DNA of 64,000 nucleotides from an uncultured virus (IMG/VR IMGVR_UViG_3300037419_001523) (IMGVR_UViG_3300037419_001523); one strand, 5' to 3'. Positions 6,090 to 46,892 are shown, counted from the stretch's first letter. The notes: generated by a model not told the origin, from the sequence alone. Made by a program: numbers and translations.

Positions 6090-7592
6090 TTATGCTAATT
6101 TTCTTTTTCTGTAGCTTGCAAAGTCGATTATATTACCCTTTACAATATTTTCTTTTACTGGTTCGTTTACTTGTTCCATAACTTCCTTTGTAACTCTTTC
6201 AAGATTGCTATTTATTTCATTTAATAATCCTTTTACCTTTTCCACTACTTCGAAGCGTTCCGGCATTTGGACTGCACACCAGCAATATTTTTTACCATTC
6301 CAATAAAAACCTACAGACTTTAATAATTTAATAATTGTTTGTGAAGGTTTGCTGCTGAAATATAATTCAATTCCTTTTTTCTTTTCGTTAAGTTCAACTT
6401 TTAAAGTAACGGAAGGAATAGCAATTTCTTGTTCGGTAGTTTCAATTATTTTGCTTTCAACTTCTTCAATAATTTCTTTTGTTGGTTGTTCTGGTGCTTC
6501 ATTCTCGATAATTGCCGTATATCTTGCGTAATCGTATCCTTGAGGATCAATTAATAAGGAGAAGTTTTCACGCTCTATTTTCACTTCTAATGCTAGGTTA
6601 TAGGCTCCTTTAATCCATTTCGCCTGCTCTGATTCGGATAATTTGTAAAAGTCCTCTGTATCCTCTACAGGCTCATAAGATGAACTAGAACCGCCTTTAA
6701 AAGTTGTATTTAAATCTTTCATATCGAATGTAATTGAAAATTGTTCGAATGTTTCTTTGTTAACTGTGATTGATTCAGCAACAACATATTTTTCTAAAGT
6801 TGCCATACGTTTATTTTTCAATTCATCAATATTGAATACTTTAGAACTAAACCAAGCATATTTAATTTCTTTTCCTTCTGGAGTAGTTTCATTTGGTAAA
6901 GTTACTTCATTAGTTGCTTTTGTTGCTCTTTCCATTTCTTTTTCATAACGTGTAGCCATTTCCAATTCTTTACTAATATCAAACTTAGCACCAATCATGA
7001 AAGAAGTTTTATTTTTATTTCCTAATTGTTTTAACATTGTAATTGCAGTCTCATAAGCTTTTCTAATTTTGCCGTATGATTTTAACCCAGTTAGTAACAA
7101 TTCTTTTAATGCTAAACCAGTTACAACAACCGAGTTATTTAATTGAATCATTCTTTCATCAGATAAGATTCTCCGAGAATTTACTTCAATGTAATAAATA
7201 TCTGTATTGTTAATTGTAATAGGCTCATAAGCAATTGCATCATATTCGTTTAGGAGTTCAATACCTGTTAAAATTGTTTGGGATTTAACTAAACCGTATC
7301 CATAGTAACTTTCATCTTTATTAACAGTCACATTGTAAAGCCCAGTAAGATCAATATTGTTTTCGTTTAAAGTTGCTTGGAAATTATCTTTCTCTTGTTG
7401 AGCTACAATTTCTTTTTGTTTAGATTCATCAGATAGGAATGTTTTAACTGCTGAAATAATTTCCTCTTTATGAGTTCGGGAACCTTTACCTTTTACCTTG
7501 GTATCATACTTATCATAGTAAGTTACAATTGCTTGAATACCTTCTCCAGTAACTTCATAAGTGAAACTTTCTAAACGGTTAACTTTTAACAT
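6090..7592 (-). CDS. Multidomain polyvalent-type early protein
   Basis: Contains IDPQGYDYARY (DUF6329-like) and VELNEKKKGIELYFSSKPS...LK..GF.W....CW, motifs I recognise from polyvalent proteins of conjugative elements and phages. Promoter TTGTAT-17-TATAAT at 7638-7666. Confidence 0.65.
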   Translation of the reverse strand: MLKVNRLESFTYEVTGEGIQAIVTYYDKYDTKVKGKGSRTHKEEIISAVKTFLSDESKQKEIVAQQEKDNFQATLNENNIDLTGLYNVTVNKDESYYGYGLVKSQTILTGIELLNEYDAIAYEPITINNTDIYYIEVNSRRILSDERMIQLNNSVVVTGLALKELLLTGLKSYGKIRKAYETAITMLKQLGNKNKTSFMIGAKFDISKELEMATRYEKEMERATKATNEVTLPNETTPEGKEIKYAWFSSKVFNIDELKNKRMATLEKYVVAESITVNKETFEQFSITFDMKDLNTTFKGGSSSSYEPVEDTEDFYKLSESEQAKWIKGAYNLALEVKIERENFSLLIDPQGYDYARYTAIIENEAPEQPTKEIIEEVESKIIETTEQEIAIPSVTLKVELNEKKKGIELYFSSKPSQTIIKLLKSVGFYWNGKKYCWCAVQMPERFEVVEKVKGLLNEINSNLERVTKEVMEQVNEPVKENIVKGNIIDFASYRKRKLA

Positions 7593-9866: not shown

Positions 9867-12140
9867 CTACGTACCACTTTCCCTCCATTTATTTATCTCA
9901 TTTTCATCAACGTTAATTTCATAACGTTTATTTGGTAATTGAATTAACCACTCATCATCCACAAGTTCATGAATTAAAGCATGGACTTTATTCATAGCAA
10001 TACCCATCAAATCTTGTAAATGAGAAACACGTAATTCTCCTGTTGTAGCAATAATCCTTTTCAATTTATCAATTGGTTTTTCAACTTTAACCTCCTCTAA
10101 TTCACCACCATCCACCACAACATCCTTAAACAATTCCTTCAAACTATCATATATATCTTCTTCATCTTCCTCAACTAAAGTTAATATCGTTGACTGAAAA
10201 CGTTCATATTCCTTTAACTGCCCTTCTAGTCTACACACTCCATCTCCTTTACCTAACAAGTTATAAGGAATCCCTTTTCCAAATACAGTTGTATAATCTG
10301 ATGAAGTTTTCAATCTAAAACTAATTGCTGAAGGTAAATTACTTTTCAACACACTTGTAACAATATCTGCTAAAGGTTTCTGTGTGCAAATGATTAAATG
10401 TATACCTGCTGCCCTAGCCATTTGCCCTAATCGTACTAAATGATCTTCTACATTCGCATTAACCATTACTAAATCTGCATATTCATCTACTGCAACAACA
10501 ATATATGGAATCTTAACTTCATTATTTTTGTTGTAGGTTGCTATGTTTCTTACTCCACTTTTAGCGAATAATTCATATCTCTTTTCCATTTCATTTACTA
10601 ATGAAGATAACAATGCATCCGCCTTTTTCATATCTGTGATTATCTTTTTAACTTGAGGAAATCCTTCAAAGAATGTGTACTCAACCTGTTTAGGATCAAC
10701 TAAGTATAATGCTAATTCATCAGGTGGAACATTCAATAACAAACTGAGTAAGAGTAAATTTACGAATACAGATTTACCTGAACCTGTTGCTCCTGTAACT
10801 AATAAATGTCTTAATTCGGCTAAGTCACTAAACATTAATCCTCCATTCACATTTTCCCCAATGATAAAAGGGAGGGGGTATTTTTCCTTGTGCTGTTGAA
10901 ATTCCTCTGATTCTAAGATGCCCCTAAAATATACGATTCCTCTTTCTTCCAATGGTACAAAAACATTAATCGTATCAGGTTTATCACCAATCTCTACACT
11001 CACTCCTTCATTACCTAAAGCAGCTTTAATATCAGTTAACTTTTTTGTAATAGATGTATACGTAATTTCTGGTGGAATGACCATCTGAACTTTTAACAAA
11101 CTTGCTCCTTGATGAAGTTCACTGACTTTTAACGGTTTCTGTACAATTCCAACCCTTTTAAACGCTTGATTTATTAATTGTGCTTTAGATTGATCAACTT
11201 CCACATTCTTATTTTCACTCTTAGGCATTAATTGAATTGCTTTTTGCAATAGCATACTGTCTTCCAAACTCTTAACTACACTTTGTTGCTTGATTGGTTT
11301 CTCTAATTCAACCTTTGTAACAGTAGAAGGTTTTTCATTGCATAAAACACTAAAAATCTCACTTTCTGATAACATTTGATTCACTAAATCAACCTGAAAC
11401 TCCCTATTTTCAATCAATTTGATAAAATTACGCTTATTTTTTACCTTTTTTACCCTAAATTCATTAAAAAGTTGTAGTTTTTGTAGGTTTTTCTCCATAT
11501 TTTCAACAAAATGATTCACATATTTCTGTTCATAAACAATAAATCTTGATTCAAAACGATAATTTTGACTGAGTATCTTCTGCTCCATTTCCTCAATCTG
11601 ATCTCGTTTAACTTGGAAATTGTTTAGTTTAGTCAGTATGTTAATAACTTTCTCTTGTAACTTGATAGTAAACTTATTCCCTAATGGAGTATCATTACCA
11701 GAAAGATAACTAGTATACTGCTGAATTACATTTTCTCGCCAATTATCTAATCTTTTGCATAATAACACTTGAGAAAACACTGTTGCATTAGGAAAATTAG
11801 TAACACAATTAAATAAATCAATAAATTGTTTTGTATCTAGTGGCATGAATAATGGTTTTTCTAAAACTAACTCAAATACAGTCAATTCCTTTACATCTTC
11901 ACTCTTGAACTCCCATTTTTTATCTGTGACAATTAAATTTTGTTTATCAAAGGAGGGGGTAATTAAATATTTCTCCCTATAGTCAGGCATACTTAATTGC
12001 TCCAGACAATATACCCCTTCCCCAATAAATCGTGATTGTAATATTTGATTGATTAAGTTGGAACTGAATCCATCTATTTCATACACATTTGATTTTTCAT
12101 TGACTAAAGGTGTTTTGTTGATCATTCGTGAAAGTGTCAT
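9867..12140 (-). CDS. FtsK/SpoIIIE-family DNA translocase with an atypical soluble N-terminal domain and a gamma-like C-terminal wHTH
   Basis: Walker A GATGSGKS, Walker B VVAVDEYADL, ARAAGIHLIICTQKP and LLGKGD motifs; C-terminal VSHLQDLMGIAMNKVHALIHEL. No obvious N-terminal TM segments. Confidence 0.9.
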   Translation of the reverse strand: MTLSRMINKTPLVNEKSNVYEIDGFSSNLINQILQSRFIGEGVYCLEQLSMPDYREKYLITPSFDKQNLIVTDKKWEFKSEDVKELTVFELVLEKPLFMPLDTKQFIDLFNCVTNFPNATVFSQVLLCKRLDNWRENVIQQYTSYLSGNDTPLGNKFTIKLQEKVINILTKLNNFQVKRDQIEEMEQKILSQNYRFESRFIVYEQKYVNHFVENMEKNLQKLQLFNEFRVKKVKNKRNFIKLIENREFQVDLVNQMLSESEIFSVLCNEKPSTVTKVELEKPIKQQSVVKSLEDSMLLQKAIQLMPKSENKNVEVDQSKAQLINQAFKRVGIVQKPLKVSELHQGASLLKVQMVIPPEITYTSITKKLTDIKAALGNEGVSVEIGDKPDTINVFVPLEERGIVYFRGILESEEFQQHKEKYPLPFIIGENVNGGLMFSDLAELRHLLVTGATGSGKSVFVNLLLLSLLLNVPPDELALYLVDPKQVEYTFFEGFPQVKKIITDMKKADALLSSLVNEMEKRYELFAKSGVRNIATYNKNNEVKIPYIVVAVDEYADLVMVNANVEDHLVRLGQMARAAGIHLIICTQKPLADIVTSVLKSNLPSAISFRLKTSSDYTTVFGKGIPYNLLGKGDGVCRLEGQLKEYERFQSTILTLVEEDEEDIYDSLKELFKDVVVDGGELEEVKVEKPIDKLKRIIATTGELRVSHLQDLMGIAMNKVHALIHELVDDEWLIQLPNKRYEINVDENEINKWRESGT

Positions 12141-12241
12141 CTTCTTTTCATCTCTTTCATGATGTGAGTTGAACTTATCGCTAACACTGTGAGATTAACC
12201 AATACCATTGTGACATTTAAAATTAACACTGATCCAATCAT
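12137..12241 (-). CDS. 34-aa single-pass membrane peptide translationally coupled to the FtsK gene
   Basis: AAGGGAGG RBS; MIGSVLILNVTMVLVNLTVLAISSTHIMKEMKRR*; its TGA overlaps the FtsK ATG (ATGA). Confidence 0.65.
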   Translation of the reverse strand: MIGSVLILNVTMVLVNLTVLAISSTHIMKEMKRR

Positions 12242-12362
12242 TTCACTGCCTCCCTTAATTTCAATTTAAGTGAATGAGTTGTGTGAGTAATCAAATTGAC
12301 CACAAGGAAACTAGAATAAAACTTCTTCCCTAATATCGCTAAAATACCTAATTTTACAAATA

Positions 12363-13652
12363 TCATAATAAATCACCTACATATCTTCTTTTGTGATGCT
12401 TACGTAAAGAAGCAACTTTTTTCATTTTGTCTTCTGCTCTCTTCTTTAAAAATTGAGTTGGTCTAAAATTTTTAAAAGTTAATATATCCCAAGTCTCTTT
12501 AAGTGTATTTTTACCTTCATCATACTGATCAAAAACATCTGATTTATCTCCTGTCATTCTTGTGACGAAATTAGGGGGATTTAATAATCGTAAAAGTCCA
12601 CCTGCTACAATCAATAACTTAATGATTAACGTAAATAATCCTCCCTGTATCCCTTGAGTGCTAAAGATGAATATTCCCATTAATAAAATGAATACTGAGT
12701 AAACTAATTGCACTAATGATAAAGATTTAACTTTACTCCACCACAGATTGAAATAATGCCTATGTCTATCGAATACCCAAGTAGATAATGCTAATGGACT
12801 AATACAAGCAAGACACATCAAGTCCCACCAACGCTTACCTGCCTGAAAGCAAACTGGAATCAATAATGCGATGGATGCTAAATCAAACAGAATAACAATT
12901 CCTGTATCGAACCAACTGATTGTTTGATTAGATATAAATCCATTATCATTTGTTCCATTGAATATACTTATTTTTGTGATAGCATTGGATAATTTATTGA
13001 GATAATCAAAACTTGTTTCAAACGCAAAAGGTAAAAATCCTGAAACTCCTGCAACTATCGCCCATCTTTTAATGATTTTATTGAATGGAGTATGATCTTT
13101 TTTGAACATCTGCATAAAGGCTTCAAATACAGTTAACATGGTTACTATCGTAATGGAAATAAGTGCAAAAGTGAGGGAAGTATTTTTCAGGTACGGATTG
13201 TTGAATATGAACAAAGGGGTTTGGAGGACAATATTAGCCATGAAGTGATAAATATGAGTGAGTAAGTCTGCTGTTAGTTTTGGAATGGAAAATGGAAGGT
13301 TATTAAACCAATCTAATCCTTTTATTACATATCCTGTGATACCTTCTAAGCTGTGAATTAATCCTTTAGGTATATCCGTTAATGATAATCCTGTTTTTGA
13401 ATTAGCAACGTGTGTAAGCACCCCTTTTTTCTGAAATACAACTTCACCAATTGTAGCAGCTTTAACACTTTTAAATACGAATAGTAAACTTGCTGTTGAT
13501 ACAGTTGCAAATGGAAATATAATTTTCTTTAGAATGGGGATACCCACCAACCGTTTCCACTGAAGAATAAATTTGCTACGTAATATATCAAGAAAACTAG
13601 AGGGACTGCTATTAGCACTTGAACGAGTCCTCGAACTATGTCTTTCGCCCAT
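12363..13652 (-). CDS. Polytopic membrane protein, TrbL/VirB6-like (start uncertain, probably near 13550)
   Basis: About 6-7 hydrophobic segments; LACISPLALSTWVF...FNLWWSKV..LSLVQLVYS resembles the TrbL/VirB6 core. Confidence 0.65.
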   Translation of the reverse strand: MGERHSSRTRSSANSSPSSFLDILRSKFILQWKRLVGIPILKKIIFPFATVSTASLLFVFKSVKAATIGEVVFQKKGVLTHVANSKTGLSLTDIPKGLIHSLEGITGYVIKGLDWFNNLPFSIPKLTADLLTHIYHFMANIVLQTPLFIFNNPYLKNTSLTFALISITIVTMLTVFEAFMQMFKKDHTPFNKIIKRWAIVAGVSGFLPFAFETSFDYLNKLSNAITKISIFNGTNDNGFISNQTISWFDTGIVILFDLASIALLIPVCFQAGKRWWDLMCLACISPLALSTWVFDRHRHYFNLWWSKVKSLSLVQLVYSVFILLMGIFIFSTQGIQGGLFTLIIKLLIVAGGLLRLLNPPNFVTRMTGDKSDVFDQYDEGKNTLKETWDILTFKNFRPTQFLKKRAEDKMKKVASLRKHHKRRYVGDLL

Positions 13653-14077
13653 TGTGTCATTCCATTGATTCTGAACATCCTCCCTACTGCATTGGCTACT
13701 AGAAGTATTGCTGCCAATATTACTGCTGCTCCTACTGATATTTTCAGAAGTGTTAATAGAAGTTCTAATAACTCTGGTGGCATTCCTGTTGCTGTTTGTG
13801 GAAGAGTTGTTGTTCCCACTGGTAGGGACGAGTTTGCCATTGATCTTAATGGTAATATCAGAAAACTGCTCGCTGTCATTAGAAATGTCTGAATTTTTCG
13901 TTTGTGTTCTTTTCTTTCTTTCTTGTTTAGCTTTTTCACCTCCTTTAGTAAAGTGGGGGAATGAAAATTTACATTGTTATCAATGATGACTTTATCGTTG
14001 TTAATTGTGAAAGGTTTAAAAAAATTATACTTAACTAATGTGTCTTGATTTTTCACGGAGAGATTCACCAACACCAT
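13529..14077 (-). CDS. TrbC/VirB2 pilin-like membrane protein
   Basis: Long leader followed by two hydrophobic helices separated by a short charged loop (GRMFRINGMTQWAKDIVRGL); GGAGGGG RBS. Confidence 0.55.
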   Translation of the reverse strand: MVLVNLSVKNQDTLVKYNFFKPFTINNDKVIIDNNVNFHSPTLLKEVKKLNKKERKEHKRKIQTFLMTASSFLILPLRSMANSSLPVGTTTLPQTATGMPPELLELLLTLLKISVGAAVILAAILLVANAVGRMFRINGMTQWAKDIVRGLVQVLIAVPLVFLIYYVANLFFSGNGWWVSPF

Positions 14078-14210
14078 TTTCGTCCCCTCCCTTACTCTTT
14101 TTACCTAATTTAAATTCATGAAAGAATTGAAGACCAAGTGCAGATGCAATTCCGATTCCACCCATAGTTGCAAGTTTTAATGTAGCTATAATAATAAATG
14201 AAGTTCCCAT
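14031..14210 (-). CDS. 59-aa membrane peptide, first gene of the membrane/FtsK operon
   Basis: AGGAGG RBS; MGTSFIIIATLKLATMGGIGIASALGLQFFHEFK...; below the ORF-track cutoff. Confidence 0.65.
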   Translation of the reverse strand: MGTSFIIIATLKLATMGGIGIASALGLQFFHEFKLGKKSKGGDENGVGESLREKSRHIS

Positions 14211-14270
14211 AATTGTAACCTCCTAGAATGTTTTGTAATGCTTTGTTTTTCTATGCTTTAGCCTATTCAG

Positions 14271-14301
14271 ATTGTATGACAGTTGAAATTTGTACTATTA
14301 C
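14271..14301 (-). promoter_or_regulatory. sigma-E-like (mother-cell sporulation) promoter
   Basis: gtaATA-17 nt-CATACAAT; the -10 element equals the sigE consensus cATAcanT. Confidence 0.5.
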
Positions 14302-14344
14302 ATCTTTTTTCATGTAATTTTTCAACTTTATAGTTAAAAAAAAA

Positions 14345-14779
14345 TTACTCCTCCTCTCTATAAAGAACTTTATTCATTGGAGGACATCCAACCGCAATCC
14401 AGATTCTTAAAAAATAATCTAATGATGGCTGAGAACGGTTAGTTAAAATAATACTTATGTTTCCAGCATCGATTTTTGTTTTCTCTGCAAGGTCTTTTTG
14501 TTTCCATCCTAAATAAGTGATGTATTCTTTAAACTTATTTTTAAGCCTATAGGGTTTACCAAGATCATCAAGACCAGATAATTCCTCTCCGTTCTTTAAT
14601 TTATTTAGATAAGCATTAACGCAACCTGTAACAAAATCTTCTATATTTAAATCGATGGGCTTACCTTTTCTTTTAGCTTTATCATTGCGTAAATTTTGGT
14701 ATTGTACGTATTCGTTTATTTCATTAAAAGTTTCTTTTTTAAATTTAATTGTTAATTCCACATACTCCTGCTTTTTCAT
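14345..14779 (-). CDS. Transcriptional regulator with C-terminal XRE HTH and possible N-terminal ribbon-helix-helix
   Basis: LKNKFKEY...KQKDLAEKTKIDAGNISIILTNRSQPSLD; AAGGAGG RBS. Confidence 0.8.
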   Translation of the reverse strand: MKKQEYVELTIKFKKETFNEINEYVQYQNLRNDKAKRKGKPIDLNIEDFVTGCVNAYLNKLKNGEELSGLDDLGKPYRLKNKFKEYITYLGWKQKDLAEKTKIDAGNISIILTNRSQPSLDYFLRIWIAVGCPPMNKVLYREEE

Positions 14780-14809
14780 GTATAAGAACCTCCTTAACGT
14801 GGGATATTA
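14780..14809 (+). promoter_or_regulatory. sigma-F/G-like (forespore) promoter
   Basis: GTATA-15 nt-TGGGATATTA versus the sigF consensus GYWTA-15-GGNRAYANTW. Confidence 0.45.
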
Positions 14810-14848
14810 GTATCAGACACAGCAAACAACGAACTAGGAGTGATACTA

Positions 14849-14947
14849 ATGTTAAATATACAATTATTAAAAAGAGACGAAGATGACTTAAATGATACAT
14901 TAGATGAAATTTTTGATAACTCAGATAGAAATGACAATAGAAGATAA
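14849..14947 (+). CDS. 32-aa acidic peptide
   Basis: AGGAGTG RBS; MLNIQLLKRDEDDLNDTLDEIFDNSDRNDNRR*. Confidence 0.45.
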   Translation: MLNIQLLKRDEDDLNDTLDEIFDNSDRNDNRR

Positions 14948-14960
14948 AGGGTGATTATAG

Positions 14961-15119
14961 ATGCAACAACTAGGCTCATGGTTTACAACAAATACAAAGT
15001 CAGCTTGGGAAGAACGTTTAGATTATATGAGCAATTATGCTATTGAGAAAACTGGCATGAACAGAAATGAATTGAAGAAGTTGCTTACTTATTTGGATGA
15101 ACAGGGTATCATACGGTAA
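14961..15119 (+). CDS. 52-aa helical protein, antisense-overlapping the M23 gene 3' end
   Basis: AAAGGGTG RBS; MQQLGSWFTTNTKSAWEERLDYMSNYAIEKTGMNRNELKKLLTYLDEQGIIR*. Confidence 0.55.
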   Translation: MQQLGSWFTTNTKSAWEERLDYMSNYAIEKTGMNRNELKKLLTYLDEQGIIR

Positions 15120-15608
15120 GTGAATTAATTGCATTTTTAAATCACTTAGTACATTCATATGTTGTTGCATGTAATCAAAGAAGTTAAGTTTTGTTGTTTC
15201 AGGAATATGTTGTACGAATTGTTTTACATTCATATTTTGAATATCGTTAATATATGGAGACGGATCGAGAAATTGTCCTTCTCCATTTTTTAATCCGAAG
15301 TGTAAATGACTACCTGTAGAAAATCCTGTATTTCCTGCATGACCTAACAAGTCACCTGCTTGAACACGTTGACCATTATGAACTGAGAAATCATTCAAGT
15401 GTCCATAAATAGCAGTTTTATTATCACCATCCCATTTAACTAAAACGGTTTTTCCTGCATTTACATTTCCGAAATCTTTGATGGTCACAACACCATCTTT
15501 AACTGAACGAATCGGCTCACCTATTTCCATCTTAAAATCAATTCCAGAATGACCATGAGAACGGAAAGATTCTTGTTGACCAAATCGTGATGTAATTTTG
15601 TAACTCAT
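15018..15608 (-). CDS. M23/LytM-family peptidoglycan endopeptidase
   Basis: HSGID, YGHL and GNTGFSTGSHLHF zinc motifs are intact; no signal peptide; hydrophobic/amphipathic C-terminus. Confidence 0.9.
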   Translation of the reverse strand: MSYKITSRFGQQESFRSHGHSGIDFKMEIGEPIRSVKDGVVTIKDFGNVNAGKTVLVKWDGDNKTAIYGHLNDFSVHNGQRVQAGDLLGHAGNTGFSTGSHLHFGLKNGEGQFLDPSPYINDIQNMNVKQFVQHIPETTKLNFFDYMQQHMNVLSDLKMQLIHLPYDTLFIQISKQLLQFISVHASFLNSIIAHII

Positions 15609-15660
15609 AATGACTTCCCTTTCATGTGATATTTTTTGAGTAAAGTAAATTCTAAGGTTT

Positions 15661-15787
15661 GTTACTGAAAATTGATAAGTGGTAAAAAGTCGTTACTCGG
15701 TAACGTAGTAATTACTGATGGCTCAGTAACGTAATGAGTAACCAGTTAGACAATCTATCAGTAACGAATGAGTAACAAGTCAGTAAC
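15661..15787. repeat. AGTAAC/GTTACT iteron array (tubC centromere-like)
   Basis: AGTAAC at 15725, 15737, 15760, 15771 and 15782 (spacing 12, 23, 11, 11); inverted GTTACT at 15661 and 15692; variants at 15699, 15707 and 15711. It lies directly downstream of tubZ. Confidence 0.75.
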
Positions 15788-15810
15788 CAGAAATTGCTAT
15801 ATGGATAAAC

Positions 15811-16908
15811 TTATTTTTGATATTTAGATAAGATACTAGACAAGGCTTTCTTGTCTTTTTGTTTTGGTCGAATTTGTAAATTAGATGATTTGTAAGATAT
15901 ACCGTGACCGCTTGAGAGTATATTTGAAAGTGATTCAGACTCGCTAATGGTTTTGTATTCAATTTGTTTTAATCGTTCTGTATTGAATTCTAAGCCAGTT
16001 AGAATTGTATATACGTCACCTTTATTTTCGTGATAGTATCCTTCAAATGAATCCAAGGTTGGATTTTTAAAATCATTTAATATGTTTTGCGGATTTATGA
16101 ATGTCATCAATCCTTCTTGACCATTAAAAATTAGTCCAAATCGGATAATCTTTGTATACGATGGTTTGGTAAAAATAGACTTTTGCCATGAATGTTTAAT
16201 GGCATCTGTTACAGATTCCTTTGACAATTGAATACCATCATTTTGATTGGTGATATTTGTATAAGCTAAAGTAGAAAATCCTGAAGTTTTAAACAGAGTA
16301 AGCAAATCCTTTTGATCTAAATTTCCATTGTGCGATTGTTTGTCTGTATGTTCAATTATAGAATCAATGATGTTGTAAAAAGTTTGATTTACTCTTTTAT
16401 ACAGTTCATTCTTCCCTTCAATTTTTACTTGTTCATTATCAATTGGTAAGATACAAATATTTAATTCACTGAGCTGCTTCAAACATTCTAACGTATTTAT
16501 CTGATTCGCTATAGGTTCTGACAAACTCGGTAAAATTGGTACGGCTACAATCGTTTTGTCACCTAATTCATTCGCCAATATTTCAAGGAACAATGGACTA
16601 ATTCCACTTCCAGTTCCTCCTGCCGTAGAGAATGTAATAAATATTAATTGAACGGAGGGTTGCGAAAAGTTATCTTTAATATAAGAAACAACAATTTCCC
16701 AATTATTCTGCATTAATGAAACTGCTAAATTTCTATCTCTACCTACCCCTTCTGAACCATGTAAACGTAATTTCAAGTGACTTTCAATATGAATACATGT
16801 ATCTAAGTCTTTTTGAGATGAATTTATTATTCCACTTAAATATCCATTTTGAGAGAATAAATCTGCAATTTGTGATCCACATTGACCTAATCCAATACAC
16901 GCAAACAT
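15811..16908 (-). CDS. tubZ: TubZ-like tubulin/FtsZ GTPase (type III partition motor)
   Basis: IGLGQCGSQIA, GSEGVGRD, tubulin signature AGGTGSG, IDN and NLDQKD T7 loop; basic C-terminal tail. Confidence 0.85.
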   Translation of the reverse strand: MFACIGLGQCGSQIADLFSQNGYLSGIINSSQKDLDTCIHIESHLKLRLHGSEGVGRDRNLAVSLMQNNWEIVVSYIKDNFSQPSVQLIFITFSTAGGTGSGISPLFLEILANELGDKTIVAVPILPSLSEPIANQINTLECLKQLSELNICILPIDNEQVKIEGKNELYKRVNQTFYNIIDSIIEHTDKQSHNGNLDQKDLLTLFKTSGFSTLAYTNITNQNDGIQLSKESVTDAIKHSWQKSIFTKPSYTKIIRFGLIFNGQEGLMTFINPQNILNDFKNPTLDSFEGYYHENKGDVYTILTGLEFNTERLKQIEYKTISESESLSNILSSGHGISYKSSNLQIRPKQKDKKALSSILSKYQK

Positions 16909-17189
16909 TACACTTCAACTCCTTCGGTGATTTTTTGAATTGCCATTACTCCATAATCAGTCAAATAGAAATGGTGAAACCTATTTAATTTGGTTACTTC
17001 AATAAACATAAGTAATTCTAATCGTTCGATTACTTTTCTTAGTGCATACTCACCTATTCCTGATTCTGTTGTGATTTGTGACTTATCTAATGACTGAAAT
17101 TTATTTATCGAATCCTTGGACAATAGAATATTCATGATTAATAAATCATCTCTACTTAGTCGCTTAACAATTGCATCAAAGTGATTCAT
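16908..17189 (-). CDS. tubR: TubR-like winged-helix adaptor
   Basis: 93-aa wHTH (GIGEYALRKVIERLELLMFIE...FYLTDYG) overlapping the tubZ start by 1 nt. Confidence 0.65.
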   Translation of the reverse strand: MNHFDAIVKRLSRDDLLIMNILLSKDSINKFQSLDKSQITTESGIGEYALRKVIERLELLMFIEVTKLNRFHHFYLTDYGVMAIQKITEGVEV

Positions 17190-17258
17190 TAATTCTTCCT
17201 CCTTGTTGTTTATTTCAAAGTTGTTGTAGAATTGATGCTCTTTGTCGTTGATTAATAC

Positions 17259-17289
17259 ACTATATGAACATACTGTTTGTACTGATTCA
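17259..17289 (-). promoter_or_regulatory. sigma-E/K-like promoter upstream of tubRZ
   Basis: TGAATCAGTACAAACAGTATGTT-CATATAGT; shares AGTACAAA and CATAYART with the 14271-14301 promoter. Confidence 0.4.
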
Positions 17290-18704: not shown

Positions 18705-21700
18705 TTGACAATTGCTTTAGAAAAACAGGTTTACATCTACTCAGTGGATACCTCTAGTTTCTATAATGAAAACGAACAGAAAATACATAAGAAATTGTTA
18801 AAATCCTATAGATATAGAGATCACTTAAAGAAACTGGATGGAAATGTTAGTAAGCATAAGAAGTACATAAGCGAACGAATAAGTTCATTAAAAAATAAAC
18901 TAATATTAAACATAAATAAAAATAGTGATATTAGACATTTAAGAAAAGATTCATTAAAGAAAAGCAACGTAATCTCATTATTTGATTCTGTGCTTACTAG
19001 AGTGTTGAAAATTGAGCAAAATTCATTATCAGAAGACATCTTTGTTGTTCAGGCATATTACTTTCAAGTATTAGAAAACATAATTAAGAATGGTTTTATA
19101 CATAATGGTGAGAAATACATATATCTAACGAGTTCAGCCGGACAGATTAGAACAAAACGATCTATCTTCATAAAAGAGTCACTGTGGAATCAACATAAAG
19201 AAACTCTAATGTGTGGATTGTCTGTTGAAGATATTAACACTCAAGGTGGAGTGAATATCAATAAGTATCAAGCTTACCTTGCTCTATCCAATAGTGCTAC
19301 AGATGAGTGGAAGAATTTCAACATCCATAGAAGTATTGTGGTTGATGATTTAGAAACAACTGTACATAGTTTGGTAGATTATATTGACCGTGAAACTTAT
19401 AAGATTACTAGGCAGGAAATGGATATTCCAATTGAGCATACGGATGGTTGTGGAATGATACTTCCAAAAAAGTCTAAGAAAAGCTTCATGTGTCGTTTAC
19501 CTTGGCTCAAAGGTTTATTAGTCCCATTCCCTTTTGATAAGTTTGCTGAAGAATATGATTCGTTTGTTGTGAAGGATATCTATGGTAAGGAATGGGATAT
19601 TGTGAAAGACAATATTGAAGTAATTTTCACTAAATCTCAGTTTAAAATGTGGAAATATTACCAAGATTGGAATGACTACAAAGATAAATTTGTAAAACAT
19701 AGCTGTCAAGCTGCTAAATTGAACGAGGAAGACGTTTCTGCTGATGCTAACCTTAATTATCAGATGATACAAACGTTGACAGATATGACTGATGAAGAAT
19801 TAACAAAAATAAGTCAAAGTACCATTGAAGACATTTTAAAAATTGGCAGTGATAAAGAAACCATGCTTCGTATATTAGGTGCTACTGAAACGAACAGAAG
19901 AAAAAACTACTTTCAACAAGCATTAAGTATGTATCCTGAATTACTGAATGATGAGCATTCTAAGCAAGTTATTAAGGATAAAAAGAAAAGGTTAATCAAA
20001 GAAGCTCGTGCTGGGAAGTTAAATGTTAAAGGGAAATATACCTTCCTAGTTCCTGATTTGTTTGCATTTTGTGAAAGATTATTTCTTAGAATCGAACAAC
20101 CAAAGGGATTACTTGCTAAAGGTGATGTATATTGTGATTTGTTTGATGAAGGTAAGGTTAATTGCTTACGTGCGCCTCATCTCTTCCGTGAGCATGGGGT
20201 TCGAAATAATGTATTAGATGAAGGAAAAGCAAAATGGTTTATCACTCGTGGGGTATACACTAGCATTCATGATCCAATTAGTAAGATATTGCAATTTGAT
20301 AATGATGGGGATAAATCCTTAGTTGTCAGTGACAAGACATTTGTTGAAGTCGCAGAACGAAATATGAAAGGTATTGTACCTTTGTATTATGAAATGGCTA
20401 AAGCCCCTGCTGAACAAATTAACAGTGAAGATATTTATAAAAGTTTAGTTTCTGCATACAAGGCTAACATTGGTGAGATTAGCAATAACATAACTAAGAT
20501 ATGGAACAGTGACAATGTTAATTTGGATGTTATCAAATGGCTGTGTATGGAAAATAATTTCACAATTGATTAAATTCTTAGTCCCTCCATATAGTGATAT
20601 ATGGATGTGCAGTCGGTGAACCTGTAAACACAGGGTGTTTGGTTAACGTTTAGTGGCAGTAGGAAATGACTGTTAATAACCAAGCTAACAGGGAAAATCT
20701 AAGTAATACACTTCACATTTTTTATATAATATATTATTAATCAAGGAGGTGATAATTATGAAGTTCATCAATGAGGATCAATCTAAAAATCTATGTGGAA
20801 TTTATAAAATAACTCAGATTAGTAATGGTCGTATTTACATTGGTCAAACAAAAATGAGATTTATAAAGAGATATTGGCATCATGTATGGAAATTGAATGA
20901 TGGAAGTCATGATAATAACTTTCTGCAAAATGCTTGGAATAAATACGGAGAAAGCGATTTTATGTTTGAAGTGGTTGAAATTATGAATCGTGATGAAAAT
21001 ATGAACAAACAAGAAATTATGTACATTGAGAAATACGATACTTATCATAATGGATTCAATATGACGCTCGGTGGTGAAGGTAAAAAAGGCACTCCGATGT
21101 CAGAACAAACAAAAGAAATTGTAGGTAGAAAAAACAGAATCCATATGTTAGGTAAAAAACACACCGAAGAAACAAAAAGAAAAATGAGTTTGTCTAGTCA
21201 TAGACGTAAAATCACTTCGGAACATGCTGAAAATTTAAGAAAATCCAGATTAGGAAGTAAACATAGTGAATCCTCTAAGCAGAAAATGAAGGAAGCGAAA
21301 TTAGGAGTCGGTTCAGCAATCAATGAATCTCAGGCTTTTGAAATAAAGAATAGATTAATAAATGGTGATAGGATTATAGATATTGCAAACGAATTAGACA
21401 TTGAATATCACAATGTTAAATCAATTCTTCAAGAAAAAGTATGGACTCATATTAAGGTAGATGGATGGGGTGATTTTATTGTTGAATATAAAAAACGGAA
21501 AAAAGAATCTTTGACAGATGACCAAGTAAGAGAAATTAGAAATTTAATAGACAAAGGATATTCTGCTCCTGAAATATCAAAATTATGTGATATTGGAGTA
21601 TCAGTTGTTTATGGTATCAAACAAAACCGAACTTATAAAAATGTGAAGTAAGACAAATAAGAGTGTATTATATGACAATCCTGTGCCAAGTCTCTAATTA

Positions 21701-22479
21701 GAGAAAGGTGCAACGACCATCCTGAAATGGAGTAGGATCGGGGTGAAACTCCTCTTTCCGAAGTGCCGACCAACTATTGCGTAAATAGTTGATGATATGG
21801 TCTATTCCCTTCAAATATAGCGAAAGCTAGGGTATAAAAGTATGCTAAAACTCTTTTCATGCCAACTAGACCAGAAGATGTCAATCAAATTATTTCACAG
21901 TACATAAAAGCGAAAGTACCTCATTTTTTCATTTATGCAAAGGATAAGGAAGAAAAGAATGTTGAAAAATTGAATGACAGTGTGGTAAATAAACTTAATT
22001 ACCTTGTTCCTAACAAACCTATTCAATTCAAAAAAATATTAGGTAAATTAAATTATAAAATGCTCATGAAAAACAAAAAAGTTTCAACTGATGAAAGCAT
22101 TATTGTGACTTTTGAGAAACTAGATAAAAGTAAAAGATGGTTGATTAAATCTAAAGAAAAAAGTGAATCAAATGAAACATTATTTATATACAAATATATA
22201 AGAGAAGAATTATTAAAAACCCATGATGATATTAATTATGTTGTAGATGTGTTAGTTAAATATTTATATATTAAAAAGAGTAGCAGAAAAGAAACGTTGT
22301 GGAAATCATTTGGTGATATTTTATTTGAGAATTTACAGTATAACCTAGAAAACACTAAACAATGTGAATCATGTGGTTCAAGAATTGATATTAAATCTAA
22401 CAAAACGAAATATTGCAATGACTGCGCTAAATATATAAAAAACGAACAAAACAAATTATACTATCATTTAGGAAAATAG
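18705..22479 (+). CDS. yonO: YonO-like single-subunit DNA-dependent RNA polymerase, two exons (18705-20570 + 21841-22479, about 834 aa)
   Basis: [25 protein letters not shown] and catalytic QFDNDGD motifs. The exons join in frame as [19 protein letters not shown]-terminal CxxC...CxxC zinc finger. Confidence 0.88.
20571..21840 (+). mobile_element. Group I intron in the RNA polymerase gene
   Basis: Exon ends in U and intron ends in G. P1 GAU/UAA pairs with UUAGUC giving a U.G at the splice site. Core-like segments CAAGCTAACAGGGAAA, AATCCTGTGCCAAG, GTGCAACGACCATC and GATATGGTCTA. Confidence 0.88.
20749..21651 (+). CDS. Intron-encoded GIY-YIG homing endonuclease with NUMOD3 repeats and C-terminal HTHs
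   Basis: CGIYKI...IYIGQT, GFN and [10 protein letters not shown] / [10 protein letters not shown] repeats. Confidence 0.92.
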   Translation: MIIMKFINEDQSKNLCGIYKITQISNGRIYIGQTKMRFIKRYWHHVWKLNDGSHDNNFLQNAWNKYGESDFMFEVVEIMNRDENMNKQEIMYIEKYDTYHNGFNMTLGGEGKKGTPMSEQTKEIVGRKNRIHMLGKKHTEETKRKMSLSSHRRKITSEHAENLRKSRLGSKHSESSKQKMKEAKLGVGSAINESQAFEIKNRLINGDRIIDIANELDIEYHNVKSILQEKVWTHIKVDGWGDFIVEYKKRKKESLTDDQVREIRNLIDKGYSAPEISKLCDIGVSVVYGIKQNRTYKNVK

Positions 22480-44492: not shown

Positions 44493-45506
44493 TTGGCTAA
44501 AATAACTAGAATAAAATACTTCACCGAGGAAAAGAAAGCATTAATTAATCCAGAGAATCAAAAGAAATATGATAAATACTTAAACTCTAATATTATTAAG
44601 AATAGAGATGTAAAAGATACTACATATCTAGTTTACAAAAATTATATGTCTCATTTCCTTGTTTATCTTGCAGAAACTTGGGAAAATATTGACCTTTATA
44701 GTGATGAATTTATGGAAAATGCAGTTGATATTATGGAAGGTTATATTTCATTCCTTCAAGATGTATTGAAGAATAACAAGAAAGTCATTAATACTAAACT
44801 TTCTACTGTTTCAAGTTTTTATTTGTGGAGTCTTAAACGTAAATTTGTTGACAGACATCCTTTTGATAAACAACTTGATCGTATGAAAGGTGCTAACGAA
44901 GAAAAAATAATCAACTCTTATTATCTTGATGAAGACCAAATGAAACTTATCACAGAAACCTTAAAGGTTGATGGTAAGTACGATATTCAAGATAGATTAA
45001 TTTGGGGAGTTATGCTTGATTCAGCTAATCGTGTAGGAGCAATTTCTAATCTTACCCTCTCTTCTCTTGATTTAGACAATATGCTTTTTGAAGGAATTCG
45101 TGAAAAACGTGGTTATCGTGTAGAAGTTGTATTCGAAGAAGATAGTAAAGTATTGATTGAACAGTGGCTTGAACAACGTAAAGAAATGGATAATCTTGAA
45201 GTGGATTCCTTATTCATTACTAAGCATAACGGTCAATATCGTCCAATGTCAAAAGGTACAATTCAGGAACGTGTGAAAAAAATTGGTGAGATTTTAGGTT
45301 TAGATGACTTTCATGCTCACTGCATAAGAAAAACAAAATTGAATGATGTCTACGTTAAGACTGGAGATTTAACATTAGCTTCTGAACTTGCTAATCATAA
45401 ATCAACTGAGGTAACTAGATCGAGTTATATTAAACCACAATCTAAAGCAGAAATTAGAGAAAAAATTAGAGCAATGAAAGAAAAGATGTCAAATAAAAAT
45501 AATTAA
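44493..45506 (+). CDS. Tyrosine recombinase (YomM-like)
   Basis: Catalytic set R (SANRVG), HxxR (HCIR), H (ANHKS) and Y (SSYI) is present. Confidence 0.9.
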   Translation: MAKITRIKYFTEEKKALINPENQKKYDKYLNSNIIKNRDVKDTTYLVYKNYMSHFLVYLAETWENIDLYSDEFMENAVDIMEGYISFLQDVLKNNKKVINTKLSTVSSFYLWSLKRKFVDRHPFDKQLDRMKGANEEKIINSYYLDEDQMKLITETLKVDGKYDIQDRLIWGVMLDSANRVGAISNLTLSSLDLDNMLFEGIREKRGYRVEVVFEEDSKVLIEQWLEQRKEMDNLEVDSLFITKHNGQYRPMSKGTIQERVKKIGEILGLDDFHAHCIRKTKLNDVYVKTGDLTLASELANHKSTEVTRSSYIKPQSKAEIREKIRAMKEKMSNKNN

Positions 45507-45563
45507 TCAAGAGTGACTGGTTTTATATCAGTTGCTCTTTTATTTTTGGAGGAGGTTATTTCA

Positions 45564-46892
45564 TTGAGCAAATTTCATAATAGATATTCAGATGAAGAAT
45601 TAATACAAATCTTAAAAGATGCTTATATTGAGTTAGGAAGAGTTCCATATATTAGAGATTTTAATAAAAGGAAACCCAACGCTTCAACTTTTCGTAGATT
45701 TGGTTCTTGGCAAGATGCTTTGAAAAAAGCAGGTTTAACTAAGGAAAAACAAAAATCTACTGATTATACAAAAGAAGAACTTATTAACTTATTAAAAAAG
45801 TATTACATAGAATATAATAAAGTTCCAACAACAAGAGATTTAAAAAGTACAAAAGGTTATCCATCTGATTCTCCTTTTAGAAGTGTATTTGGTTCTTTTA
45901 AACAAGCGTTAATTGATGCTGAACTATTCGATTTAAGAAAAGACAAAGATAAAAAAATATTTGATAGGAAACCATATACTAAAGAAGAATTATTAACATT
46001 GCTTGATAATTACATTAAAAAGAAAGGGAGAATACCATCATGGAAAGAAATTGATTCTTTGAAAGAATTACCTAGTTGTACTGCATATATTGCACATTTT
46101 GGTAGTATGGAAAATGTAATTAATTTACTAGGTTATGACTTAGAAAAACAAAGACAACAGGATTTACAAGAATTAAAGAGTGATATGTTAAAAAAATATA
46201 AAATATTAAAAGAAAGATTAGGTAGAGTCCCATCAAGTAGAGATATTGAAGAATACTGTAGAAAAGAGAAAAGTATTTATTCTATGGGTGCTTATGAATT
46301 TCATTTTGGAAGTTTATATGAATTACAATTATTATGTGGTTTTACACCGACAGTTATCGGGAGAAATAAAACAAACGAAGACTTGTTGGATGATTTAGTT
46401 AGAATATCATATGAAATAGGGAGAACACCTTCTCAAAATGATTTGATATTTTTTGATGATGTTGCAAATTACCACAAATATGCAAAAGAATTTGGATCAT
46501 GGAATAATGCAGTAAAATTAGCAGGCTTGAAACCTAATAATGATGTTTATTACTCAAATAATGGGATAGAATGTCTTTCTTATTATGAATTACTTTTTAC
46601 TAATATGCTTGAAAAGTATAATATTAAATTTTTAAAGGAAGAGTTCTATAAAGATTACATACCTACAAAAAGAAGGTTTAGGTTTGATTATGTAGTTGAT
46701 TTAAAGGATAAAAAAATATTTGTGGAAATTTTCGGAATAACTTGCAAAGAAAATTATAAAGAGAGAACAAAAGAAAAAATAACACTTTGTGTAGAAAACA
46801 AAATTGATTTAATTGAAATTTATCCAGAAGATTTCACAAGTTACAAACTAGAAAAAATACATAAAATGTTTTTATCTAAACTTCAAAAATAA
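45564..46892 (+). CDS. Putative homing endonuclease with tandem HTH-like repeats and a C-terminal PD-(D/E)XK-like domain
   Basis: Five repeats of the type Y(S/T)xEEL...LGRVP...FGSW..AL..AGL; SYYE...FRFDY...FVEIFG; GGAGGAGG RBS before the TTG at 45564. Confidence 0.7.
   Translation: MSKFHNRYSDEELIQILKDAYIELGRVPYIRDFNKRKPNASTFRRFGSWQDALKKAGLTKEKQKSTDYTKEELINLLKKYYIEYNKVPTTRDLKSTKGYPSDSPFRSVFGSFKQALIDAELFDLRKDKDKKIFDRKPYTKEELLTLLDNYIKKKGRIPSWKEIDSLKELPSCTAYIAHFGSMENVINLLGYDLEKQRQQDLQELKSDMLKKYKILKERLGRVPSSRDIEEYCRKEKSIYSMGAYEFHFGSLYELQLLCGFTPTVIGRNKTNEDLLDDLVRISYEIGRTPSQNDLIFFDDVANYHKYAKEFGSWNNAVKLAGLKPNNDVYYSNNGIECLSYYELLFTNMLEKYNIKFLKEEFYKDYIPTKRRFRFDYVVDLKDKKIFVEIFGITCKENYKERTKEKITLCVENKIDLIEIYPEDFTSYKLEKIHKMFLSKLQK

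Follow-up and report, generated by a model that had tools for sequence, protein, structure and literature searches.

The question raised by this locus is what a phage may gain from carrying, in a single block of genes, a DNA motor of the FtsK/SpoIIIE family together with a membrane protein of the type IV secretion system (T4SS) kind, a peptidoglycan endopeptidase and a tubulin-based partition pair. The block lies in a stretch of 64,000 nucleotides (hereafter the window) from an uncultured virus (IMG/VR IMGVR_UViG_3300037419_001523), and an original prediction had described it as a candidate system for transferring double-stranded DNA (dsDNA) without a relaxase, either from cell to cell or across the sporulation septum. 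All ten elements named in that prediction are present on the minus strand between positions 9867 and 17189 according to open reading frame (ORF) calls, and for TubR, TubZ, the M23 peptidase and the motor FtsK the identification is secure from PDB or Pfam matches. Here, we propose that the block is a self-DNA translocation cassette of Bacillaceae phages and plasmids, which would pump the element's own dsDNA across a septum, most likely into the forespore, and we assign this reading a probability of about 0.45. It is carried by the identity of the parts, by their conserved order in related loci and by the joint variation of a repeat array with the recognition helix of the motor, from which we infer binding, docking, pumping and the destination of the DNA.

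Repeat array and recognition helix of the motor

The operon running from the M23 gene to the FtsK gene is headed by an array of GTTACT repeats. Seven of the 43 GTTACT matches in the window fall within these 127 bp, where ~0.09 would be expected, and on the minus strand five direct copies with ~11-bp phasing are followed by inverted copies. The same pattern, a run of direct copies and then inverted ones, is usual in related loci, 22 of 24 of which contain at least four copies of the 5-mer core within 136-251 bp (0.3-1.4 expected), and a short array of the same kind is present at locus L016. Across the loci, each of seven classes of array motif goes with its own variant of the predicted FtsK recognition helix (Table 1).

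Table 1. Array motif classes and the FtsK recognition helices with which they occur
Array motif	Recognition helix	Loci
TTACC	[KR][MI]N	several SPbeta-like loci, BCP8-2
TTACT	[AG]xNKV	window and relatives
TTTCCC	KTTKMK	three Herelleviridae genera
ATTTCC	KTSTMS	Shbh1
AATTCC	KAE	L017 group
TC[TG]CCC	RESN	L019
TA[GA]TCC	GRDKMK	Moonbeam

In an FtsK tree built from the N-terminal domain and the motor, with the winged helix left out, L006 nests in the TTACT clade and phage BCP8-2 in the Herelleviridae clade, and both have TTACC arrays and helices that fit TTACC. For L016, the helix served to predict the array class before the array itself had been read, and the prediction was confirmed. The small adaptor proteins of the partition pairs do not follow the motif: the ribbon-helix-helix (RHH) adaptors of L006 and L009 share an identical N-terminal strand and belong to different classes, and loci with TubR, loci with RHH adaptors and loci lacking TubRZ have motif classes in common, so that the array is not specific to TubR. 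Since the motif varies with the FtsK recognition helix and not with TubR, the array is most likely the loading site of the motor, analogous to clt and the TraB recognition sequences (TRS) for TraB and to the SpoIIIE recognition sequences (SRS) and FtsK orienting polar sequences (KOPS) for SpoIIIE and FtsK; TubR may bind to it as well. The idea of a TraB-like FtsK motor reading short repeats thus gains in silico support from the common change of motif and helix, whereas the array does not appear to be an iteron set of TubR. A role of the array as tubC was likewise rejected, the same array classes being found at loci without TubRZ.

The hexamer TAGAAT separates the last inverted repeat from the ribosome-binding site of M23, and TAGAAT, TATAAA or TAAAAT occupies the same place in the aligned upstream regions of nine relatives; it is a putative -10-like promoter element. 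Plasmid pBMB26 has no phage-type array directly before its helix-turn-helix (HTH) gene, and a TTCGA cluster is located ~700 nucleotides upstream.

With respect to the motor itself, the PDB search gives E 1.7e-57 for FtsK (2iuu) versus 2e-20 for the coupling protein TcpA. Structural alignment with VIA-align places residues 297-685 of the model on E. coli FtsK (2ius) with Z 42.9 and a root-mean-square deviation of 2.7 over 371 residues at 32% identity, the other values being Z 29.7 for EccC, 28.3 for TcpA, 18 for VirB4 and 15 for TrwB. As modelled, the protein is a true FtsK-type dsDNA motor and not a coupling protein. The model (predicted local distance difference test, pLDDT, 83) comprises a folded N-terminal domain (residues 9-270), a disordered linker (272-293), the alpha/beta motor (about 297-685) and a winged helix (689-753). 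Residues 689-742 are modelled as helix-helix-helix-strand-strand with pLDDT 80-88, a gamma-like layout, and Pfam Ftsk_gamma is unmatched at E 0.01 or better. The absence of a transmembrane anchor noted in the original prediction holds: no 19-residue window reaches a hydropathy of 1.6, and in the model residues 9-270 form a soluble alpha/beta domain instead of a multi-pass membrane anchor. In the ESM Atlas this N-terminal domain of ~260 residues gives unnamed clusters and a weak DUF8128 lead, with no recognised family, and the results of a fold search with the whole protein were all taken up by the motor domain. The NCBIfam model plasmid_TraB (NF041214) matches the P-loop region only (E 2e-16; 59.6 bits against a cut-off of 800).

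PADLOC matched the FtsK-like ATPase domain to the defence proteins SspH (2e-51) and mad8 (3e-21) and no other module protein. A defence function was dropped, these matches being limited to the ATPase domain.

Composition and gene order of the cassette

The core of the cassette consists of a small transmembrane peptide, a protein with two transmembrane segments, a VirB6-like protein and FtsK (Table 2). The order two-transmembrane protein, VirB6-like protein, FtsK is found in every locus among L001-L024 that reaches those positions and in four further Herelleviridae genera, and these genes are usually preceded by a transmembrane protein of 59-73 amino acids (aa) and an M23 peptidase. Plasmid pBMB26 has genes for an HTH protein, a 66-aa protein, a 208-aa protein, a VirB6-like protein and FtsK in the same order. 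Conserved synteny, which the original prediction had proposed to look for, is therefore strong across related phage loci and this plasmid.

Table 2. Features of the cassette and its immediate neighbour in the window
Feature	Position	Strand	Support or remark
HTH_36-type DNA-binding protein, 262 aa	8892..9680	minus	phrog_19047 1.6e-60; weak Pfam HTH_36
Anchor-less FtsK-type dsDNA translocase (as modelled), 757 aa	9867..12140	minus	Pfam FtsK_SpoIIIE 3.8e-46 (PF01580)
Single-transmembrane peptide, 34 aa	12137..12241	minus	phrog_4802 2.2e-8; stop overlaps FtsK start
ORF of unknown role, 42 aa, weakly hydrophobic	12238..12366	minus	homologues in L009, L010 and L011 only
VirB6/TrbL-like polytopic membrane protein, 394 aa (longest ORF 429 aa, to 13652)	12363..13547	minus	phrog_3750 3.5e-76
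Two-transmembrane membrane protein, 182 aa (175 aa as called elsewhere)	13529..14077	minus	phrog_3528 1.9e-28
Single-transmembrane peptide, 59 aa	14031..14210	minus	hydrophobic segment at residues 4-25
HTH protein (HTH144), 144 aa, C-terminal XRE-type HTH	14345..14779	minus	weak Pfam HTH_19 5e-4 and HTH_3 1.4e-3
M23 (LytM-type) peptidoglycan endopeptidase, 196 aa	15018..15608	minus	Pfam Peptidase_M23 9.4e-25; phrog_7767 6.6e-54
Putative -10-like hexamer TAGAAT	15649..15654	minus	between last inverted repeat and M23 ribosome-binding site
Repeat array heading the M23-to-FtsK operon	15661..15787		GTTACT copies
TubZ, tubulin/FtsZ-family GTPase, 365 aa	15811..16908	minus	Pfam Tubulin 3.5e-16
TubR, winged-helix adaptor of type III partition pair, 93 aa	16908..17189	minus	PDB match 4asn

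The VirB6-like protein of the window has no Pfam match of its own, and its assignment comes through relatives. Two of 34 family members, homologues of 41-44% identity, pass the gathering score of Pfam TrbL_4. A profile of the 34 members retrieves 159 cluster representatives at E 0.001 or better, and seven of 36 distant representatives match TrbL_4 at E 3e-4 or better, three of them above the cut-off, with no other membrane family being matched. The top five Foldseek matches of the model are TrwI/VirB6 chains of the R388 T4SS (probability 0.96-0.99; target template-modelling score 0.39-0.51), and TrwI is also the best PDB profile match (E 0.34). The VirB6/TrbL-like identity given in the original prediction thus receives moderate, transitive support. 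One match of the profile search, P0240, is a natural fusion of an M23 domain (34-131) with a VirB6-like domain (224-499).

The two-transmembrane protein has a hydrophobic leader and a C-terminal hairpin, with transmembrane segments at 102-137 and 145-174, and may be called VirB2-like by its topology; the ESM Atlas yields T4SS_pilin as leads below the significance bar. The M23 protein contains the HxxxD and HxH zinc-ligand motifs in its translation and covers positions 2-95 of the 96 in the Pfam profile. Among the small peptides, which give nothing significant in Pfam or NCBIfam, the 59-aa peptide has homologues at the same position in 11 loci, and ORFs of 62-73 aa are annotated there in BCP8-2, Bobb, Moonbeam, Shbh1 and Goe27. 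A 34-44-aa transmembrane peptide with an LLNTT motif directly precedes FtsK and overlaps its start in 13 of 19 related loci.

The XRE-type C-terminal HTH of HTH144 is conserved in the window and 12 aligned homologues. The gene is conserved in all six genome loci and in SPbeta-like viral loci, and an HTH gene is also present in pBMB26. HTH144 was not found in L001 and L002, the two Herelleviridae loci searched with it, and no HTH gene is annotated between M23 and the small transmembrane gene in the four further Herelleviridae genera. By its domain and place, HTH144 is a probable regulator of the operon.

Interchangeable partition pairs

The two components of the type III TubZRC system, a TubZ GTPase and a TubR adaptor, are both present in the window. 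TubR has TubR 4asn as its sole PDB sequence match (E 1.2e-8, residues 2-87) and gives nothing significant in Pfam or NCBIfam, and the best PDB matches of TubZ are TubZ 4xcq (9e-15) and 3v3t (5e-14). In the window, as in L005, L007, L012, L016 and L019, the pair immediately precedes the array. At L003, L004, L006, L008, L009 and L014, the same position is occupied by a 276-290-aa protein and a 72-80-aa RHH-like protein; a GIDAGN motif read in the printed N-termini of the larger proteins suggests that they are actin-type and ParM-like. Six Herelleviridae loci have an actin-like gene and an 88-112-aa protein there. Those of BCP8-2 and SIOphi match Pfam ALP_N and MreB-like_C, the partition gene of Bobb, Moonbeam and Shbh1 is annotated as ParM-like, and Goe27 has unannotated ORFs of similar size.

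TubRZ can therefore be exchanged at its position for actin-type partition pairs and, since non-homologous pairs replace it, is not as such essential to the cassette. The occupation of one position by three unrelated cytomotive systems speaks for a functional link of the cassette with DNA positioning, so that the coupling to a cytomotive system proposed originally is borne out in a form broader than TubRZ. Upstream of tubR there are two 12-nucleotide copies 106 nucleotides apart and no iteron array. At L003, a cluster of TTTCTA/TAGAAA repeats (6370-6485), distinct from the cassette array, lies directly upstream of the ParM-like gene and is likely to be a parC-type centromere of that partition pair.

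Carriers of the cassette

The window has ~30% G+C. Since it encodes a siphovirus-type virion module in 22-64 kb (portal, Clp-type protease, tape measure, Dit and a YomG-like tail protein) and, at 18.7-22.5 kb in Pfam and PHROG scans, a YonO-type single-subunit RNA polymerase, it belongs to an SPbeta-like large phage. The 64 kb were read from a genome of roughly 137 kb, the longest contig with the identical VirB6-like protein (P0001) having 137,158 bp. Near-identity DNA searches with the block found no match in phage and plasmid collections, and the nearest record, G001, is a 24.8-kb fragment in which FtsK has no match. The sequencing runs that contain the stretch are DNA metagenomes of soil and rhizosphere.

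A tblastn search with the VirB6-like protein detects it in 162 phage records; 160 of these are named after Bacillus and one, described below, after Xanthomonas, and most carriers of the cassette are lytic myoviruses of the Herelleviridae, whose "FtsK/SpoIIIE-like" protein is 35-38% identical to the full-length FtsK of the window. Plasmid-style mating, which the original prediction had considered, does not suit such carriers as a general use. B. subtilis phages with the module include Grass, SIOphi and Goe27. The VirB6-like protein also occurs in 12 large plasmids (10 of Bacillus, one of Niallia and one labelled Arthrobacter), all classified as non-mobilizable by MOB-suite. In six Bacillaceae genomes, each of a different species, the cassette stands beside a YonO-type polymerase, which indicates SPbeta-like prophages, and two of these are in contigs of 4.7 and 5.0 Mb. 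The designation "prophage-plasmid" finds no support, as two TubRZ-bearing relatives lie in bacterial contigs of 4.7 Mb and 5.0 Mb and a third in an IMG/VR provirus record.

In BCP8-2, sigma-F/G-like genes adjoin the module, as noted in the accessible part of PMC3601020; this fits a link to sporulation and is no proof of it. The FtsK-like and VirB6-like genes of "Xanthomonas phage Xoo-sp15" (MN364664.1) match the query like those of JBP901 and BCP8-2, over the same residues, and the Xanthomonas host label looks doubtful.

VirB4 and relaxase genes

General scans of the ORFs of the window revealed no VirB4 or relaxase family, either with Pfam (64 ORFs: 20, 9 and 35) or with PHROG (61 ORFs). Five related full records were also searched, namely phages BCP8-2 and SIOphi and the virus records G002, G004 (99-100% complete) and G003 (116 kb). 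With the VirB4 families, G002, G004, BCP8-2 and SIOphi give only the P-loop of FtsK for PF12846 (AAA_10) and nothing for PF03135 (CagE_TrbE_VirB). PF03432, the sole relaxase family searched genome-wide, is found in none of the five records, and rarer relaxases are possible elsewhere in these genomes. The expected absence of VirB4 and relaxase is consequently upheld for four of the five related full records and fails for G003, which has a separate and complete T4SS.

This system, of Tcp type and ~40 kb from the cassette (L025, 7997-19930), comprises an 860-aa AAA_10 ATPase, TcpE, TcpC, a Replic_Relax protein, an SLT/NlpC-P60 hydrolase and an Alp7A-like actin, and G003, an IMG/VR record, has the appearance of a conjugative plasmid and not of a phage. 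Because the cassette and an ordinary T4SS coexist on it, the cassette probably does a different job.

Proposed mechanism and alternative explanations

Crossing a septum appears to be the task that best fits the cassette, because its parts are a positioning filament, an addressed motor, a T4SS-type membrane complex and an M23 wall opener. The partition pair, whether TubR/TubZ, a ParM-like protein with an RHH protein or an Alp-like actin with a small protein, would move the DNA of the element poleward or to the septum. The anchor-less FtsK motor would then load on the DNA of the element at the array, read by the C-terminal gamma-like winged helix, and dock on a membrane complex of the VirB6-like protein, the two-transmembrane protein and the small transmembrane peptides. 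The M23 endopeptidase, which has no signal, would locally open the septal peptidoglycan, and the dsDNA of the element would be pumped through the septum with no relaxase to nick it. SpoIIIE takes its direction from polar SRS motifs and pumps both arms of the chromosome, and by analogy the bipolar array could allow both arms of the element to be pumped. With the forespore as destination, the spore would carry a lytic phage, a temperate phage that has not yet integrated or a low-copy plasmid; the actin AlfA is reportedly required for plasmid retention in B. subtilis spores. A wider formulation, in which the motor reads a private array and exports the genome, free of relaxase and VirB4, through a VirB6-like channel into either the forespore or a sister cell, seems doubtful to us.

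Several points weigh against pumping into the forespore. Integrated prophages (L005, L007) travel with the chromosome and need no forespore pump, and the passage of a dsDNA circle or concatemer through a pore is, to our knowledge, unsolved even for TraB. Most of the pairing between motif and helix follows clades, with two clearly independent switches seen. The array overlaps a sigma-A-like promoter region and could act as an operator, alone or in addition; the recognition helix of HTH144 shows a faint class-linked difference (NIS versus NLS/AIS), and HTH144 may be the array reader in the SPbeta-like group. As for the membrane complex, the TrwI fold matches are statistically weak (E 0.06-0.17, from a model with pLDDT 62), and hhalign of the VirB6-like profile with the 598-aa protein at the TcpH position of G003, a weak test with a single-sequence target, detected no relation. 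The two-transmembrane protein, described as pilin-like in the original prediction, has a topology that fits VirB2 but no significant family in Pfam or NCBIfam, its 25 relatives giving noise-level TrbC, T4SS_pilin and CagC matches in Pfam (E 0.1-0.9), and the small transmembrane peptide before FtsK is missing in six of 19 related loci. A hydropathy scan of the M23 protein found no signal peptide, transmembrane or hydrophobic segment. In addition, the restriction to Bacillaceae may stem from descent rather than sporulation, and there is no RNA run among the sequencing runs that contain the stretch.

An entirely intracellular role in DNA management, in which the motor clears, decatenates or resolves genomes at the division septum with the array as loading site or operator and the membrane proteins as anchor, is unlikely in our judgement. 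The partition pair always adjoins the cassette, the motor has no anchor of its own and is encoded together with small transmembrane proteins, the convergent repeats recall KOPS converging on dif, and the window contains a tyrosine recombinase gene (44493-45506), all of which would agree with such a role. However, it leaves unexplained a conserved M23 endopeptidase with intact motifs, the fusion of M23 with a VirB6-like domain and a T4SS-type membrane protein; besides, lytic phages that package concatemers have little need of dimer resolution, and the recombinase lies 30 kb off, inside the tail module. Transfer of dsDNA from cell to cell without relaxase and without virions, in the manner of TraB and Spd and for instance across the septa of Bacillus chains, would have the parts to be expected, namely an FtsK motor with a repeat-reading winged helix, a VirB6-like channel protein and a wall hydrolase. 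Four of the five full records have no VirB4 or relaxase, and in the 12 module plasmids, all MOB-suite non-mobilizable, no known relaxase was recognised. Nevertheless, most carriers are lytic myoviruses that already spread as virions, the complete Tcp-type T4SS of G003 suggests that the cassette does what conjugation does not, the block has no surface adhesin or mating-pair factor, and its constant intracellular partition partner points to a process within the cell or sporangium, which makes this explanation distinctly unlikely.

We consider least probable that the array is a plain operator for HTH144 or another regulator and that the cassette remodels membrane or wall, times lysis or mediates exclusion without any sequence-specific pumping. 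The overlap of the array with the -10-like element just upstream of M23, the HTH144 gene within the operon at SPbeta-like loci and in pBMB26, the resemblance of a signal-less M23 protein plus small transmembrane proteins to an endolysin-holin pair, and the FtsK-like ATPase domains of SspH and mad8 could all be accommodated in this way. Yet the array architecture persists in the two Herelleviridae loci in which a search found no HTH144 and in the four further genera in which none is annotated after M23, and the recognition helix of HTH144 hardly varies across motif classes whereas that of FtsK does. Moreover, PADLOC matches the ATPase domain and no other module protein, and there would be little reason for a complete FtsK alpha/beta/gamma motor if no DNA were translocated. 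Help with the entry of virion DNA at infection is unlikely, because the function must serve lytic myoviruses, temperate SPbeta-like phages and large plasmids alike; this candidate was rejected on the ground that plasmids carry the cassette too.

Spores carrying phage genomes have long been known, and we know of no phage-encoded machinery that has been defined for getting DNA into the spore. If the cassette is such a machinery, it would account for the survival of lytic phages and low-copy plasmids through the dormancy of their host; under the wider formulation given above, even strictly lytic phages would gain virion-free transmission and long-term persistence. It would also provide a T4SS-type channel protein that works with an FtsK motor and without VirB4, and a natural set of motors with matching addresses in which DNA reading by FtsK-type winged helices could be studied.

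Other features of the window

Downstream of FtsK, the 262-aa HTH_36-type protein is encoded in three of the six genome loci as well as in the window; it is a possible accessory of the cassette, of uncertain membership. It also matches replication-initiator phrogs weakly, and is followed by a 500-aa protein of unknown function (6090-7592).

The YonO-type polymerase is encoded by two ORFs of 622 aa (18705-20573) and 206 aa (21859-22479), which correspond to consecutive parts of phrog_8308, and a GIY-YIG/NUMOD3 homing endonuclease (20749-21651) is encoded in the interval; the polymerase gene could be split or interrupted by an insertion of intron type. The tape measure protein (47852-55913) is likewise in two ORFs, consecutive parts of phrog_4211 (positions 197-845 and 850-1819), separated by a 390-aa ORF without a known family (49896-51068). 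Within the tail gene module are the tyrosine recombinase mentioned above (PF00589, 7.7e-19) and, in the region 44493-46892, a protein with four homing-endonuclease-associated repeats (PF18780, 1.3e-57).

Comparison with known systems

In the accessible parts of PMC3601020, PMC3853049 and PMC10294663, the FtsK/SpoIIIE gene of Bacillus phages is mentioned as a notable gene or listed as a sporulation homologue, and the FtsK-gamma domains fused to small terminase, according to the portion available of PMC8190038, are a different case. A search of the literature, in which subscription journals were not covered, found no description of the whole module as a system.

The cassette resembles the TraB/clt system of Streptomyces in having an FtsK-family motor of hexameric type that ends in a winged helix, short repeats arrayed on the DNA of the element itself, accessory small membrane proteins comparable to Spd, and neither relaxase nor VirB4. 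In contrast to TraB, its motor scores far below the TraB equivalog cut-off and is closer to chromosomal FtsK, its hosts are Bacillaceae phages and plasmids, and it adds a VirB6-like protein, an M23 peptidase and a partition pair. Its repeats are of 6-7 bp in direct-then-inverted arrangement, and any transfer by the cassette is putative. With SpoIIIE and FtsK it shares the alpha/beta motor, a winged helix modelled as gamma-like, a DNA motif that co-evolves with the helix and spore-forming hosts. The motor differs from them in lacking the N-terminal anchor of four transmembrane segments, in its novel N-terminal domain of 260 residues and in leaving Ftsk_gamma unmatched, and its sites, unlike SRS and KOPS, are clustered in one array and not spread and skewed along the genome.

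The minimal T4SSs of Gram-positive bacteria (Tcp-type systems of pCW3 and Tn916, and pELF) likewise combine an FtsK-family ATPase with a VirB6-like protein, a peptidoglycan hydrolase and small membrane proteins. The pELF machinery is described in the accessible portion of PMC13492992 as highly minimised for conjugation, with the VirB4 analogue traC essential by mutation. Such systems need a VirB4 analogue (traC in pELF, the 860-aa AAA_10 protein in the G003 cluster), whereas none is present in the window scans or in four of the five related records; furthermore, the hydrolase of the cassette is of the M23 type and theirs SLT/NlpC-P60, and its ATPase is a full FtsK and not a coupling protein of the VirD4/TcpA type. 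The partition genes agree with TubZRC of pBtoxis, a B. megaterium plasmid and phage c-st in the order tubR-tubZ, but differ in that no iterons lie upstream of tubR, the array downstream of tubZ is not specific to TubR, and the pair is exchanged for actin types in relatives. Taken together, what appears to be new in the cassette is the putative combination of dsDNA translocation of the FtsK/TraB type with a channel protein of the T4SS type.

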